DNA from: a virus
Lineage: Duplodnaviria > Caudoviricetes
Virus record (IMG/VR): IMGVR_UViG_3300028374_000002
Coordinates: 1 to 64,000 of that record
Strand: one strand, 5' to 3'
Length of the DNA: 64,000 nucleotides
Shown here: piece after piece, positions 21,441-27,908 of the stretch
How positions within the stretch are numbered: position 1 is the first letter of the stretch
How the letters are laid out: each line of letters opens with the position of its first letter
Translations under genes and position numbers: made by a program
Notes under the pieces: model-generated
The model's input: the letters and a program-made list of their open reading frames with translations, nothing else
Databases searched by the model: none
What the model was told of the DNA's origin: nothing

Positions 21441-23273
21441 ATGATTGTTTCAAGCAGTGTGAAAATAAAAGTTAATCCTAACATAAGAAAATATTATATA
21501 AGCAAAGGGTATAGCTGTGTAAATAACGAGATTATTGATGTAAAAACTATTGACTTATCGCCTGGTTCTAATCTACGAATTGATACAGAATGTGATAATT
21601 GCAAAGCTAAAAGTTCATCCATTTTTAACAAGTATTATAAATATACCAACTCCTTCAAAGATAATTACTATTGTAAAAAATGTAAGAAATGTAATTCCGA
21701 AAAAGCTAAAAAAACTAGGAAGGAAAGATATGGGGATGAGAACTACACTAATATAGAAAAGGGGAGAGAAACCAAGAAGAAGAAATATGGCAATGAGAAT
21801 TATAATAATAGAGAAAAGGCTAAGAAAACCACAAATATTAAGTATGGTGTTAATAATGTATCTGAAATAGATTTTGTTAAACAAAAGAAAATAAAAACAT
21901 CACTAGAAAAGTATGGTGTTAACAATCCATTCCAGTCAAGTATAATAAAAGCTAAGATAGAGAATACTTGTACCATCAAATACGGTACTAAGCACTACTT
22001 AACATCCGATGACTATAAAGCTAAATATGAAACGTACTGTGATTCAATGGGTGTTAAGCATTATTCACAAAGTGATGAATTTAAAGATAAGTTCAAAGAA
22101 ACTTGTTTGGTGAAATGGGGGTTTAGTACTAATCTATTAAATGATGAGATAAAGAATAAGATAAAGAAGACAAATATTGAAAGATATGGTGTTGATCACT
22201 GTATGAAGAATAAGGATATTTCTTTACTAAACTCTAAATCTATGATAGAAAATAGGAGTGATTACTTTGATAGCCTAGGATATACATATTTAAGTTATGA
22301 CTTTGATAAGAAACTATACGAATTAAAAAACAAGGACTGTGGTCATAAGTTTCAAATAAATTATGATTTATTCAGAAGTAGAATCAAGTACAGTAATAAT
22401 AGCTGTCTTAAATGCTATCCTAAAAAAGACTTGGTATCAATAAAAGAAAAAGAAATAGTTAATTGGTTAAAAGAATTTGATATAGAAATTATAGAGAATA
22501 CTAGAAATATCATAAGTCCATTAGAACTAGATATATATTTACCAAAACATAACATAGCTATTGAATTCAACGGTCTTTACTACCATTCTGATAAATTTAA
22601 AAAAAAGAAATATCATATAAATAAGACTGATAGATGTGAAGTAGAAGGTATTGAGTTAATTCATGTATGGGAGGATGATTGGATAAACAATAAAGATATA
22701 ATAAAGTCTATAATATTAAATAGACTAGGATTTATAAAAGATAAAGTATTTGGCAGAAAATGTGAGATAAAAGAAGTTAGTGTAAAAGATAGTAGAAATT
22801 TTCTTGATAGTAATCATATACAAGGATATACTAACTCATCAATTAAGATAGGCTTATATCATAATGAGGATTTGGTAAGTCTTATGACGTTTGGATCTAG
22901 ACGAACGAATAATAAAAAAGAATATGAACTTATTAGATTTTGTAATAAATTAAATCTAAGTGTACTAGGTGGTTCTTCAAAATTGTTCAAACATTTTGTT
23001 AAACACTATAAGACATCAAGAGTAATATCATATTCTGACAAATCTATGTTTAATGGGAATATGTATAAAGTGTTGGGCTTTAAAGATGATGGGAACACAT
23101 CCCTTAATTATTATTGGACAGATTTATCAAAAAGATATCACAGATTTAATTTTAATAAGAAAAAGCTGGTAGAGAAAGGCTATGATGAATCACTTACAGA
23201 AAATGAGATAATGAAAAGCATTGGTTTTTACAAGATCTGGTCATGTGGACAAATTAGATGGATTATTGAGTAG
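21441..23273 (+). CDS. Hef-like homing endonuclease paralogue
   Basis: KYGV repeats, ELDIYLP..IEFNGLYYHS..HVWEDDW, GGSSKLFKHF. Confidence 0.75.
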   Translation: MIVSSSVKIKVNPNIRKYYISKGYSCVNNEIIDVKTIDLSPGSNLRIDTECDNCKAKSSSIFNKYYKYTNSFKDNYYCKKCKKCNSEKAKKTRKERYGDENYTNIEKGRETKKKKYGNENYNNREKAKKTTNIKYGVNNVSEIDFVKQKKIKTSLEKYGVNNPFQSSIIKAKIENTCTIKYGTKHYLTSDDYKAKYETYCDSMGVKHYSQSDEFKDKFKETCLVKWGFSTNLLNDEIKNKIKKTNIERYGVDHCMKNKDISLLNSKSMIENRSDYFDSLGYTYLSYDFDKKLYELKNKDCGHKFQINYDLFRSRIKYSNNSCLKCYPKKDLVSIKEKEIVNWLKEFDIEIIENTRNIISPLELDIYLPKHNIAIEFNGLYYHSDKFKKKKYHINKTDRCEVEGIELIHVWEDDWINNKDIIKSIILNRLGFIKDKVFGRKCEIKEVSVKDSRNFLDSNHIQGYTNSSIKIGLYHNEDLVSLMTFGSRRTNNKKEYELIRFCNKLNLSVLGGSSKLFKHFVKHYKTSRVISYSDKSMFNGNMYKVLGFKDDGNTSLNYYWTDLSKRYHRFNFNKKKLVEKGYDESLTENEIMKSIGFYKIWSCGQIRWIIE

Positions 23274-23292
23274 TTTACTTAATATATACTAA

Positions 23293-24009
23293 ATGGTAAT
23301 GATTTCAGACACTAACAAAGAAAAAATTAAAGGTTTCATAACGAAGAATGATTTAGACTTCACTATCGTAGATTTAGAAGATGAGATTTCCAAATTCACA
23401 ATAATATCACAAGATGGTATTAATTTCTTTTTCTACACGTATAATGATAAGTTCATACTTGTTAAATACGATTCAGATAAGGATAAGGCTGGGCAAATAT
23501 ATATAAATACACATGAATATTATGAGTTTAAAACCATGATAGAGATGCTAACACAACTCAAATATTATGATGATAATATACCTAAATCATTTTGGGAAGT
23601 GACATTAAACTCGGCAGAAGTTCCCTTCAACAAAGGAAGTTATACAGATGACTGGCATAAAGAATTTCAAAGAGATGCAGAATATACTAGAATAGATTCT
23701 GATGATTTTAATAACTACGAATATATAGTTTACGAAAATCCATTATATTCACCAAATATAAAATCCCCTCATAACACGCTTTCACAAGTAAGTTATATAA
23801 ACTCTGATGAGCAGTCTATAGTTAAAGTCAACAAGCTATACTATGAAATTCATCCAATATCTTGTGAGCCAGGTAGTGAGGAATACTTGTTTAAACTATT
23901 GGCTAATAATGAAGAAACTTTAAAAGAATTCATAAACTACATTGTCCATAAGAAAAAAGGCTTAACTTTGTTGATAAATGATATTTTCAATAACCTATCT
24001 AAAACATAA
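23293..24009 (+). CDS. Hypothetical protein
   Basis: ORF with TAATATATA 4 nt upstream. Confidence 0.75.
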   Translation: MVMISDTNKEKIKGFITKNDLDFTIVDLEDEISKFTIISQDGINFFFYTYNDKFILVKYDSDKDKAGQIYINTHEYYEFKTMIEMLTQLKYYDDNIPKSFWEVTLNSAEVPFNKGSYTDDWHKEFQRDAEYTRIDSDDFNNYEYIVYENPLYSPNIKSPHNTLSQVSYINSDEQSIVKVNKLYYEIHPISCEPGSEEYLFKLLANNEETLKEFINYIVHKKKGLTLLINDIFNNLSKT

Positions 24010-24080: not shown

Positions 24081-25823
24081 ATGAGTAAAAAAATAGAAGA
24101 CAAGTACAAAATATTATCACATATTGATCATATCTTATTAAGACCACAAACTTATGTTGGATCAAATAAAATAAGAAATGAGCAAAGGTGGGTTGTTGAT
24201 AAAGATAAAATGACTAAAAGTGAGGTATCATATATCCCATCTTTTATTAAAATATTTGATGAAGTAATTACCAATTCTATTGATGAAAGCAAGAGAAATA
24301 AAAAGTTAAATAGAATTGATGTTTGTGTAGATAAAGATAAAATATCTATCAAGGATAATGGTGGTATACCAGTTGTCAAACATAAGGAGTATAAGATATA
24401 TGTTCCAGAGGTTATATTCGGAAATCTTATGTCTGGTACGAATTATGATGATGCAGAGGAAAGAACAGTAGCTGGAGTTAATGGGTTAGGCTCAAAACTA
24501 ACAAACATATTTTCAACTGAATTTAGTGTATCAACTTGTGATGGTAAGAAGTGCTTCAAACAAAAATTCGAAAATAATATGAGAGTTAAGGGAAAGCCTT
24601 CTGTTAAAAAAGGAATTAAAAAACATACACATATAGAATTTAAGCCTGACCTTGAGAAATTTGGGATGAAAGATATAAACAATGACCATTATAAAATAAT
24701 AGAAAAAAGGGTTTATGATTTAGCAGCATGTAATCCAAAAGTTAAAATATATTTCAATGGAAAGCAAGTGAAAATAGACTCTTTTGAAAATTATATAAGT
24801 CTATATGTGTCAGATTATCTATATGAGTCTAATAAAGGGAATGAGTGGGAGGTTGGTGTTGCTTTGTCAGAAGATGGATTTGAACAAATATCATTTGTGA
24901 ACTCAACTGAAACTTATGATGGTGGTACACATGTTGATTATGTGATGAACCAGATAATCACAGAGTTAAGAGCTTATTTTAATAAAAAGCACAAATTTGA
25001 TGTCAAGCCATCAGAACTTAAGCAACACATGTTATTATTATTAAATTGCACAATAATTAACCCATCTTTTTCTTCACAGACAAAGGAAAAGTTGATAACA
25101 GAGGTCAAAGATTTTGGACAAGAGTTTGTAGTTTCTAAGAAATTGATAAACTCTATTTTAAAATCAGAAATAGTTAACTCAGTACTAGATTGGATAGAAC
25201 AAAAGAAACAAGCTGATGAGAATAAACTACAAAGGAAAGTAAATAAAAACTTATCTAAAATAAAAGTAGAAAAGCTAATTGACTCTAAAGGTAAAGACCG
25301 TATAAAACATTCTCTTGGACTTTATGAGGGGGATTGTTTAAGTGAGGATACCGATATAAGAGTTATTAGAGATGGTGATATAATAGATGTGAAAATAAAA
25401 GATGCAAATGTTGATGATTTAGTCATAACACATAATAATACATTTTCAAGTATTTATTCTATGACTAAAAAAATAAAGAAAAAATCAATAATAAAAACAA
25501 AGGATATAGAATTAGTATCTAGTAAAGAACATGAGTGGTATGTATATGATACAGAATTAAATGAGTTTTATTTCGAAAAAACAATTAATATAGATAAAAA
25601 TAAACACAAATTAGTTAAGAATTACCTAGCATTCATAGAATCATTATTAGTTATTGTATATTCGGATGGTAGTACTATTAAATTAGATTCGGGTGATGTT
25701 ATAGACACAAATGATAATCATAGCTTAGCGGTATATGATAAGATTGAAAATAAGTTCAAAATGTGTAGGGCAATTGATATAGATATTAGTAAACATCTAC
25801 TAGTTAATATTTTCAGATTGTAA
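24081..25823 (+). CDS. Type IIA topoisomerase ATPase subunit N-part (T4 gp39/GyrB-like) fused to split-intein N fragment
   Basis: HILLRPQTYVG, EVITNSIDE, DNGGIP, GVNGLGSK, FSSQTKE; reads ..LYEGD then CLSEDT. Confidence 0.95.
   Translation: MSKKIEDKYKILSHIDHILLRPQTYVGSNKIRNEQRWVVDKDKMTKSEVSYIPSFIKIFDEVITNSIDESKRNKKLNRIDVCVDKDKISIKDNGGIPVVKHKEYKIYVPEVIFGNLMSGTNYDDAEERTVAGVNGLGSKLTNIFSTEFSVSTCDGKKCFKQKFENNMRVKGKPSVKKGIKKHTHIEFKPDLEKFGMKDINNDHYKIIEKRVYDLAACNPKVKIYFNGKQVKIDSFENYISLYVSDYLYESNKGNEWEVGVALSEDGFEQISFVNSTETYDGGTHVDYVMNQIITELRAYFNKKHKFDVKPSELKQHMLLLLNCTIINPSFSSQTKEKLITEVKDFGQEFVVSKKLINSILKSEIVNSVLDWIEQKKQADENKLQRKVNKNLSKIKVEKLIDSKGKDRIKHSLGLYEGDCLSEDTDIRVIRDGDIIDVKIKDANVDDLVITHNNTFSSIYSMTKKIKKKSIIKTKDIELVSSKEHEWYVYDTELNEFYFEKTINIDKNKHKLVKNYLAFIESLLVIVYSDGSTIKLDSGDVIDTNDNHSLAVYDKIENKFKMCRAIDIDISKHLLVNIFRL
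25335..25820 (+). mobile_element. Split intein N fragment (162 aa)
   Basis: Block A CLSEDTDI..KIKD...DLV directly after EGD; block B-like SKEHEWYV. Confidence 0.9.
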
Positions 25824-25882
25824 CCCCTTCGAGACTATACACTTCCCTCGAAAAGGCATATTTTAATATTAATATATATAGT

Positions 25883-27187
25883 ATGGTATTAAAATATGTG
25901 TATAAGTCTAGTATTTATCAAGTCTCTATAAAATCCATAGAGAAATTAGAATCAGGGTTTAAATTTTCAATAAGGAAGAGGTTAGATATATCAATAAATG
26001 ATTATTTGATATATTTAGGATTTAATGTCGAAAGATGTAGAATTTGTAATATAGGAGATGTTCCTATTGTTTTAGACATTAGTATAATAGAAGGATTTGT
26101 AAAAGTAAATGGGTTTAAATATAAAAAGAGTATTTATTGCTATAGTTCTAATAATAAATGTGATGGTATAAAGATGAACTCTAATTCATTTGAGTTTATT
26201 TCCAAGGTCGAAAATATTTCTATTGAAGAAGCCAATATATTATTGAAAGAAAGAAATAGAAGTCCTTTTTATAAAGAAAATTGGGATTCTGATAAAGAAT
26301 ATAAGAATTCACAGTCTAGAAACATGGAATATTTTACAAAAAAATATGGTGAAAATGGTGATGTTAAGTACAAAGAGTATATAGACAAACTAGCATATTC
26401 GAATTCTGTTGAACGGTATATAGACGAGTTTGGTGAAGTGAAAGGAGAGGAGATGTTTAATATCATTTCTAATAAAAAGGATTCGATGTCTTTTGATTTT
26501 TTCTTAAATAAAAATGACAATGATAAAGAATTAGCATTGGTAGACTATAATGAAAGGTTAAAGCATGTAAATAATTCTCTCGATAATTGGATTTTTAAAT
26601 ATGGTTATGACAAGGCTATCGAAAAACATAAATTAAGAGCTAATAATCAAAGGGAAACTTTTGCTAAAAATCCAAATATAAATGAAATACATAAATCAAT
26701 GGGAATTACTATTAGTAATTTATACAATAAATATGGTGATTATGACTTAGCGGTTAATAAATACAAAGACTGGTTAAGTAAAGTAACAGTACCATTTTCA
26801 AGAGCATCAAAGGAATCATTATTAATATTTACTGATGTTATTAAGTGGTGTATAGATAATAAAATTGAACATAATGATATTTATATAGGTGATAAAGATA
26901 AGAATGAATATTTTATAAGAGATGGTAAAAACATTTTCTTCTACGATTTCACAATAAGAAGTAAACAAATAATTATAGAGTATAATGGTGTAATATTCCA
27001 TCCTAAGAACGAGGATTCGAAATGGGTAAATCCATTTAATAGAAGCATAACACCAAGCGAAGCATATAACAAACAGAAAAATAAGATTAATTTAGCCAAA
27101 ACTAATGGATTTTCTATACTAGAAGTATGGTCAGATGGTGATAATAATTATGACAAGTGTATAAATTTTATTAAAAAAAATATTTAA
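25883..27187 (+). CDS. Free-standing Vsr/DUF559-like homing endonuclease between the intein halves
   Basis: KYG..G repeats; C-terminal FYDFTI..IIIEYNGVIFH..K.NLAK..GFSILEVW. Confidence 0.75.
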   Translation: MVLKYVYKSSIYQVSIKSIEKLESGFKFSIRKRLDISINDYLIYLGFNVERCRICNIGDVPIVLDISIIEGFVKVNGFKYKKSIYCYSSNNKCDGIKMNSNSFEFISKVENISIEEANILLKERNRSPFYKENWDSDKEYKNSQSRNMEYFTKKYGENGDVKYKEYIDKLAYSNSVERYIDEFGEVKGEEMFNIISNKKDSMSFDFFLNKNDNDKELALVDYNERLKHVNNSLDNWIFKYGYDKAIEKHKLRANNQRETFAKNPNINEIHKSMGITISNLYNKYGDYDLAVNKYKDWLSKVTVPFSRASKESLLIFTDVIKWCIDNKIEHNDIYIGDKDKNEYFIRDGKNIFFYDFTIRSKQIIIEYNGVIFHPKNEDSKWVNPFNRSITPSEAYNKQKNKINLAKTNGFSILEVWSDGDNNYDKCINFIKKNI

Positions 27188-27188
27188 A

Positions 27189-27320
27189 ATGGTAGAGAAT
27201 TTTTTAGAACTAGTAGACATAGAAGATGTAATTCACACAGAAGAATATGTTAACATGGTTGATATAGCTGTTGATGTTGATCAGAGCTTCTTATTAAGTA
27301 ATGGTATTATATCACATAAT
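27189..27320 (+). mobile_element. Split intein C fragment (44 aa)
   Basis: Block F MVDIAVD..SFLLSNG, block G IISHN, Ser+1 at 27321. Confidence 0.9.
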
Positions 27321-27908
27321 TCCGCTGTTGGTGCTTTTAGAAAGTATAGAAACACACAGACAATGGGTGCTTTTGCATTAAGGGGGAAGTTTATGAATGT
27401 ATCTGAGGTAAGTAATGCTAAGTTAGTCAAAAATGCGGAGGTAGTTAATATAATGGCAGCAATTGGATTGAAATTAGGACAACCATTAGATATGAAAAAT
27501 ATAAGATATGGAAAAGTTCTTTTGTATGTAGATTCTGACCATGATGGTAATTCTATTGCTAGTCTGTTATTGAATTTCTTTTATACATATTGGCCAGAGA
27601 TGTTTGATAAAAACATGATATATAAAGTTGAAACACCTATAGTAGTTGCTATACCTAGAAACAATAAACTAAAGAAAATTTCTTTGTATAACCAAAAAGA
27701 GTATAAGCTATGGTCTGATAAACATGATTTAAAGAAATTTGATATAAAGTATAAAAAAGGATTAGCTGCTTTAGTGGGGGATGAATACAATGATATTATA
27801 AATAATCCTAGACTTACACTTATAACCAAAGATATTATGGCTGGTGACTCTTTGAATACTTGGTTTGGGAAGGAATCTGATTTGAGAAAAGATGAATTAT
27901 TGGAATAA
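27189..27908 (+). CDS. Intein C fragment plus topoisomerase TOPRIM C-part (T4 gp60-like)
   Basis: HN|SAVG..ALRGKFMN..YVDSDHDG..KYKKGL. Confidence 0.95.
   Translation: MVENFLELVDIEDVIHTEEYVNMVDIAVDVDQSFLLSNGIISHNSAVGAFRKYRNTQTMGAFALRGKFMNVSEVSNAKLVKNAEVVNIMAAIGLKLGQPLDMKNIRYGKVLLYVDSDHDGNSIASLLLNFFYTYWPEMFDKNMIYKVETPIVVAIPRNNKLKKISLYNQKEYKLWSDKHDLKKFDIKYKKGLAALVGDEYNDIINNPRLTLITKDIMAGDSLNTWFGKESDLRKDELLE

Follow-up and report, generated by a model that had tools for sequence, protein, structure and literature searches.

Why does the N-terminal fragment of a split intein (IntN) in a phage topoisomerase gene hold its block B region twice, and what might the second copy do? The locus lies in a 64,000-nt stretch of viral DNA (the window; positions 1 to 64,000 of IMG/VR record IMGVR_UViG_3300028374_000002, Caudoviricetes), for which a first-pass annotation had described a tandem duplication and had suggested that it provides two alternative catalytic segments or marks an evolutionary intermediate. 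Coordinates are window positions, and all genes and coding features described here lie on the plus strand.

The gene is in two pieces. Its N-half is a 580-aa ORF (24081-25823, stop codon at 25821-25823) composed of a 418-aa N-extein (24081-25334) that ends in LYEGD, followed by IntN. The N-extein covers the ATPase/transducer region of a T4 gp39-like large subunit of phage topoisomerase II; it matches Pfam DNA_gyraseB (PF00204) with an E-value of 1.9e-24, and the alignment of the family profile to the T4 topoisomerase II gp39 structures 8ylu and 8yo3 runs to "teGD". Between the two gene halves is a free-standing 434-aa ORF (25883-27187). The C-half ORF (27189-27908) begins with a strongly acidic, 44-aa IntC (27189-27320) ending in GIISHN and continues, across an HN/SA junction, into a C-extein that starts SAVGA and has 195 aa plus the stop codon (27321-27908). 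Pfam and PHROG assign to this C-extein, beyond Ser+1, the remaining TOPRIM region and TOPRIM_C: the C-half matches Pfam Toprim (E 1.8e-7, from C-half residue 43), TOPRIM_C (E 3.4e-7) and the topoisomerase II large subunit family PHROG 543 (E 3.7e-54), of which positions 445-634 continue in the C-half. The exteins join at a conserved site of the host protein, the one ending in EGD and the other beginning with SA.

The intein has the features of class 1. The Cys1 nucleophile directly follows YEGD and is present in all 153 long-form sequences; a block B His motif ([TS]xxH) was found, with Ser63 kept in 142 of the 153 and His66 in every one; and IntC ends in SHN before SA, with H43, N44, S45 and A46 invariant among 57 aligned sequences. 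We take [TS]xxH with a conserved His to be the defining motif of block B. The Hint fold was likewise found, as a split intein has it. As we read it, the topoisomerase II large-subunit gene of this presumed huge phage is fractured at TOPRIM EGD/SA by a class-1-type split intein.

This layout is like that of the "fractured genes" of phages described in the accessible part of Dassa et al. 2009 (PMC2677866), in which an endonuclease gene stands free between an N-half that carries IntN and a C-half that carries IntC, all on one strand. In that part of the article the words "topoisomerase", "gyrase" and "gp39" do not occur, and "duplicat" is used in other senses only. A split Hint domain with an endonuclease between the parts of a metagenomic phage Topo2L gene is mentioned in passing in the portion of bioRxiv 10.1101/2022.08.31.505936 that was available, where neither the IntN length nor an internal repeat is described. 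Across the open-access and bioRxiv full text that could be searched, no intein was found described as having its block B region duplicated or as possessing a third subdomain.

IntN extends from Cys1 (codon 25335-25337) to Leu162 (25335-25820) and begins CLSEDT. Translation of the ORF from Cys1 bears out the annotated length of 162 aa, and the annotated interval, 25488-25805, corresponds to residues 52-157 as described. IntN is also, as had been remarked, longer than solved split inteins: the Npu DnaE IntN chain has 101 aa, and gp41-1 aligned over residues 1-89 only. Residues 1-33 (25335-25433) comprise block A, with Cys1, together with the Hint fold's first globular region. Copy 1, residues 34-94 (25434-25616), consists of a basic strand pair, the block B strand Ser63 to His66 (His66 codon, 25530-25532) and the second globular region. 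The linker KNYLAF, residues 95-100 (25617-25634), is the best conserved stretch in close relatives, with a mean pairwise identity of 0.99 among 89 close sequences. Copy 2, residues 101-157 (25635-25805), repeats the order of copy 1 with an acidic strand pair, a second block-B-like strand from Thr125 to His129 (His129 codon, 25719-25721) and a third globular region; residues 158-162 (NIFRL) form the C-terminal end.

That this is a true tandem duplication, as first proposed, was supported by BLASTP, by shuffling and by profile-profile comparison. BLASTP of residues 1-100 against 101-162 aligned 44-94 with 114-157 (18 of 51 positions identical, E 7e-6), and the Smith-Waterman score of 62 was reached by none of 2000 shuffles (mean 29.3, sd 5.6, maximum 60). 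With family profiles built from the 153 unique sequences, hhalign aligned copy 1 (52-94) with copy 2 (114-157) over 43 columns at a probability of 98.8% and E 1.2e-16. The originally reported correspondence of 52-94 with 114-157, including a second block-B-like [ST]xxH motif in the duplicate, therefore stands, but the repeat is wider than had been reported: comparison of segments 1-94 and 95-162 aligned 34-94 with 101-157 (E 1.4e-13), which places its start about 18 residues further upstream and makes the unit about 60 residues long. The DNA retains the same signal: the period is 63 codons, or 189 nt, a direct repeat of 42 nt (25582-25623 and 25771-25812) is 76% identical, and nucleotide identity is 55% over the 43 aligned codons compared with 32% expected from composition. 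An ordinary mini-intein has about 143 aa. The 206 aa of IntN plus IntC, less the 63-aa period, leave about 143, close to this size and within the range of the solved mini-inteins that were matched (about 127-145 aa), so the duplication accounts for the extra length. At the level of sequence, the comparisons confirm that the duplication of a unit of about 60 residues in IntN is real and larger than first noted.

In a search of the phage record (201,264 bases, CheckV completeness estimate 28%) for further copies of the duplicated IntN, the locus itself was the only match. Against Pfam, IntN gave a sub-threshold match to Intein_splicing (PF14890; E 0.054) over residues 95-156. A match to Coilin_N (E 0.0003) fell below that family's own cut-off and was taken as compositional.

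The age of the duplication was judged from its spread among relatives. In a word-indexed search, IntN was 161-166 aa long in all of the best 120 of 151 matches; nearly all of those listed proteins were about 580 aa long, and the whole 162-aa IntN was covered at 58-99% identity. An exhaustive HMMER search of cluster representatives yielded 86 proteins with identities down to 27%. Among the 77 with an intact intein start, 71 were long, five were short (97-101 aa) and one was contiguous; the long IntN is a family-wide trait, and short forms also occur. Within a protein, copies 1 and 2 are 26% identical; between proteins the value is 25% overall and 21% for distant pairs. This near equality points to a single old duplication, with no marked or ongoing gene conversion, and thus to a tandem duplication of the 63-codon unit that arose once, before the family diversified. 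An evolutionary intermediate, as had been suggested, is difficult to reconcile with a long form conserved down to about 27% identity and a divergence between copies that fits one old event.

A duplication of this age could be a neutral relic, tolerated at a permissive split site; the position is one at which inteins tolerate large insertions, and copy 2 is more variable than the rest of IntN and has been lost in some lineages. Against this, lineages that are only 27-35% identical have kept the length of IntN (150-187 aa), the reading frame, the secondary-structure pattern and the motifs, and KNYLAF is 99% conserved among close relatives. We therefore regard a relic as the least probable of the explanations considered, and very remote.

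Natural variants without copy 2 serve as controls. In the five short-form relatives, IntN ends 2-7 residues past the KLV motif that closes copy 1. One of them, on a 159,837-base viral contig (L001), has an IntN of 101 aa that ends in a true stop codon and is followed by a homologue of the intervening ORF. Its 42-aa IntC is 69% identical to the window IntC over the C-terminal 26 aligned residues, and its N-terminal NNFKLLEID resembles ENFLELVDIED of the window; with IntC nearly the same in a short form, the IntN extension has no counterpart in IntC. The contiguous intein, in P0181, is about 155 aa long, occupies the same insertion site and lacks copy 2; it was used with caution, since the far C-terminus of the protein looks like an assembly chimera. 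It is the only contiguous intein among the 86 representatives, none of which has a contiguous intein with the duplication. The module is dispensable in nature, being absent from natural variants. In a quick tree (about 96 columns, no support values), the short and contiguous forms branched among the long forms at three or more separate points, which would mean repeated loss of copy 2 if the direction of change is loss and not gain. One database protein, P0125, has an unrelated N-terminus, resembling the start of a dehydrogenase-type nucleotide-binding region, joined to IntN from about residue 15, and is probably an assembly or gene-call chimera.

Which copy, then, is catalytic? The first-pass annotation had proposed two alternative catalytic segments. 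On that view either copy, combined with residues 1-33 and IntC, could complete the active site, and alternative folds, domain swapping or conditional splicing would follow. Both copies share an [ST]xxH-type motif and the secondary-structure pattern; copy 2 has weak matches to other Hint domains in their block B regions (E 0.076-1.2); and inteins are known to domain-swap, with PDB entries 4kl6 and 5bkh among the structure matches. The copies are nonetheless not conserved alike. Compared with the invariant His66, His129 is present in 141 of the 153 long forms and replaced in the other 12 by N (5), D (5), K (1) or S (1), and in close relatives of the window copy 2 reads TNxxH, with Thr four residues before His and not three. 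Copy 1 is the more conserved at both ranges: pairwise identities are 0.71/0.75 for copy 1 against 0.60/0.55 for copy 2 among close sequences, and 0.30/0.32 against 0.19/0.21 among distant ones. Among solved relatives the gp41-1 split intein comes closest in sequence (E 7.7e-8), and its block B, EIICSEEH, aligns on copy 1. Residues 1-101 of the IntN model superpose on a complete IntN, copy 2 is predicted to be self-closed, and the short forms presumably splice with the copy 1 geometry only. On these grounds two interchangeable segments appear improbable, and the sole catalytic block B is most likely that of copy 1. The asymmetry of the two histidines, the conservation, the gp41-1 match and the pattern in the AlphaFold2 model together indicate that residues 1 to about 100 form an ordinary, complete IntN and that the rest is extra.

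A model of IntN alone was generated using AlphaFold2 with a 34-sequence alignment (mean pLDDT 92.3, pTM 0.73). A pattern of strand, strand, short helix and strand appears in it three times, at residues 7-31, 67-93 and 130-158; within residues 1-33 the strands are at 7-12, 15-20 and 29-31, with a short helix. In the full model, residues 102-162 form one compact unit that aligns to small beta-barrel proteins with Z 3-4.2, and when the extension is modelled alone AlphaFold returns a small, closed, Hint-like module with helix 3-7 in the KNYLAF region. Foldseek of the full IntN model against the PDB gave nothing at E<=0.001, the best matches being Hint domains and inteins at E 0.03-0.2. No complete intein aligns past residue ~102 of the model, from which it follows that in this model of IntN alone the strands of 101-129 are not placed in the IntC site. 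A periodic packing of three units, with 67-162 arranged like 1-101 and 101-129 in the IntC site, was considered and is not borne out by the ranges of the structure alignments.

We consider it about an even chance that IntN combines an ordinary catalytic part (residues 1 to about 100) with a selected, non-catalytic accessory module some 62 aa in length (101-162). A unit consisting of a strand pair, the block B strand and the globular region that follows (about 34-94) would have been duplicated in tandem on a single occasion in the distant past, and selection would since have kept the resulting module, which would form no part of the active site. According to the prediction, the module folds autonomously into a small beta structure that closes on itself and corresponds to one pseudo-symmetric Hint subdomain in permuted order, its own two strands filling the groove that IntC strands would otherwise take. 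It would hang at the split site, where contiguous inteins carry nested endonuclease domains. Copy 2 is, from the models, most likely an autonomous accessory Hint subdomain at that site. IntC would dock on copy 1, and the strand part of the module, having switched from basic to acidic, should not compete with copy 1 for IntC. The benefit may be that the N-terminal precursor is stabilised or solubilised while it awaits the separately made C-half; that the module keeps this precursor folded and soluble is a guess on our part. One observation sits uneasily with an accessory role: about 92% of sequences still have His129 together with a Ser or Thr at the third or fourth position ahead of it, which exceeds what a purely structural role obviously requires.

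The two copies also differ in charge. Residues 34-66 carry +5 in the window protein (family mean +4.3, positive in 97% of distant sequences), residues 101-129 carry -5 (family mean -3.5, negative in 83% of distant sequences), and IntC carries -10 (family mean -9.4). The gp41-1 split intein (PDB 6qaz, 6riz) likewise has Cys1, a basic IntN strand and an acidic IntC, the two strands forming a "charge zipper" according to the available text of bioRxiv 10.1101/546465; it consists of two pseudo-symmetric units, whereas the 162-aa IntN of the window has a third, the duplicate of 34-94. With the same sign as IntC, residues 101-129 should neither attract IntC nor compete with copy 1. The acidic duplicate may thus simply stay out of competition for IntC; alternatively, it might act in cis as a mimic of IntC.

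The second of these possibilities would make the module a built-in pseudo-partner, a cage or chaperone whose acidic residues 101-129 cover the basic docking strand until IntC displaces them, so that splicing is delayed or gated or the N-precursor is protected from aggregation. The family-wide charge of 101-129 has the sign of IntC and is opposite to that of the parent segment, and by Hint pseudo-symmetry, as treated in the part of bioRxiv 10.1101/546465 at hand, these strands correspond to those with which IntC begins. Engineered caged split inteins or intein zymogens (Gramespacher et al. 2017, cited in the accessible part of PMC11766414) similarly contain a fused, Hint-derived and charge-matched partner fragment. 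Those cages are derived from the partner, block association by design and are released by proteolysis (PMC11766414, same part), whereas the segment in the window is a copy of IntN's own residues and does not lie on the docking surface in the models. The IntN-only model, as noted, leaves 101-129 out of the IntC site, and the basic strand 44-56 is mostly unpaired in it (DSSP assigns strand only at 51-54). Charges of 34-66 and 101-129 do not covary across the family (Spearman 0.09, p 0.25). Residues 95-129 have no similarity to IntC (hhalign probability 1.7%), a value on which a derivation of the module from IntC was also dropped. Because of the model placement, the lack of charge covariation and the lack of IntC similarity, mimicry of IntC is ranked second, as a rather unlikely explanation.

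The module could instead serve another interaction, for instance by pairing with itself into a two-subdomain pseudo-Hint that unites two N-halves, or by attaching to the extein or to some other protein of the phage. We count it in favour of this reading that topoisomerase II is active as a dimer. A single Hint subdomain is moreover half of a pseudo-dimeric fold, as set out in the available portion of PMC7664689. No evidence for a partner was found, and no stand-alone relative of the module was found either in the HMMER family search, in the ESM Atlas (no usable match) or by Foldseek against BFVD (nothing at E<=0.001). We consider such an interaction highly improbable.

For the accessory module, the work on the origin of the fold offers a point of comparison. 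The part of PMC7664689 available describes the pseudo-C2 symmetry of Hint, the resemblance of its subdomain to EF-P/IF5A-like barrels, and a proposed origin by duplication of a small barrel of this kind. That is a hypothesis on the deep origin of a two-unit fold, whereas in the window a third unit has been added to an intein that was already complete. A bolder reading would make the long IntN a natural three-unit Hint protein in which the extra, charge-inverted unit either substitutes for IntC from within or provides a second block B/globular module that can be swapped in; trans-splicing of the phage topoisomerase would be gated ("caged" or switchable), and the module of about 62 aa would represent the hypothesised single-subdomain Hint ancestor as an autonomous unit; we think this quite unlikely.

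Split inteins are widely used protein-ligation tools whose behaviour is governed by the way in which the N and C fragments meet and fold. A widespread natural IntN family with a conserved, charge-inverted extra Hint subdomain, together with short forms, is a ready-made comparison. It can be tested whether an extra self-folded half-domain brings gains in solubility or in the rate or control of trans-splicing, whether one Hint subdomain by itself folds autonomously, which bears on the proposed origin of the fold by duplication, and how a phage keeps an essential enzyme working with its gene in two pieces, or in three in some relatives.

The 434-aa ORF lies between IntN and IntC on the same strand and is presumed to encode a homing endonuclease. 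It matches PHROG 22677, a family of unknown function (E 2e-13), and has no Pfam match and no PDB match by sequence, so a Vsr-like label is not confirmed for it, a point of difference from the fractured genes of Dassa et al. 2009. The homologue in L001 is at the same place (E 3e-30). Among six long-form loci from viral contigs, L003-L008, found with a smaller family alignment (A4), a homologue at this place is full in three (L005, L007, L008), a remnant in two (L003, L006) and absent in one (L004). As the 162-aa IntN is accompanied by a full ORF, a remnant or none, the extension is not tied to the endonuclease gene.

Straight after the IntN stop codon, at 25824-25857, there is an imperfect inverted repeat, CCCCTTCGAG...CTCGAAAAGG, with a loop of about 14 bases, and an A+T-rich stretch separates it from the next ORF. 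Hairpins upstream of such endonuclease ORFs are described in the accessible part of Dassa et al. 2009 (PMC2677866). A 610-aa homing-endonuclease-like ORF (21441-23273), which ends about 800 bases ahead of the topoisomerase gene, matches PHROG 3339 (E 3e-127) and the HNH family PHROG 559 (E 3.5e-95); with the intervening 434-aa ORF, the stretch holds two mobile-endonuclease-type genes. A 238-aa ORF (23293-24009) lies between this upstream gene and the topoisomerase gene and has no PHROG match at E<=0.001. A single base separates the 434-aa ORF, whose stop codon ends at 27187, from the ATG of the IntC-half ORF at 27189, and P0251 has a single reading frame that runs from the C-terminal end of the endonuclease-like ORF through the IntC half; the one-base gap and the fused frame suggest coupled translation.

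In P0215, P0251, P0312, P0319 and the L004 locus (L004:4490-5692), the C-half is split again by a second split intein, inserted at the TOPRIM D-x-D motif (DAD/C) and with an IntN of ordinary length. Neither of the two inteins of L004 has an endonuclease gene. In these relatives, the topoisomerase large subunit would accordingly be assembled from three polypeptides by two split inteins.
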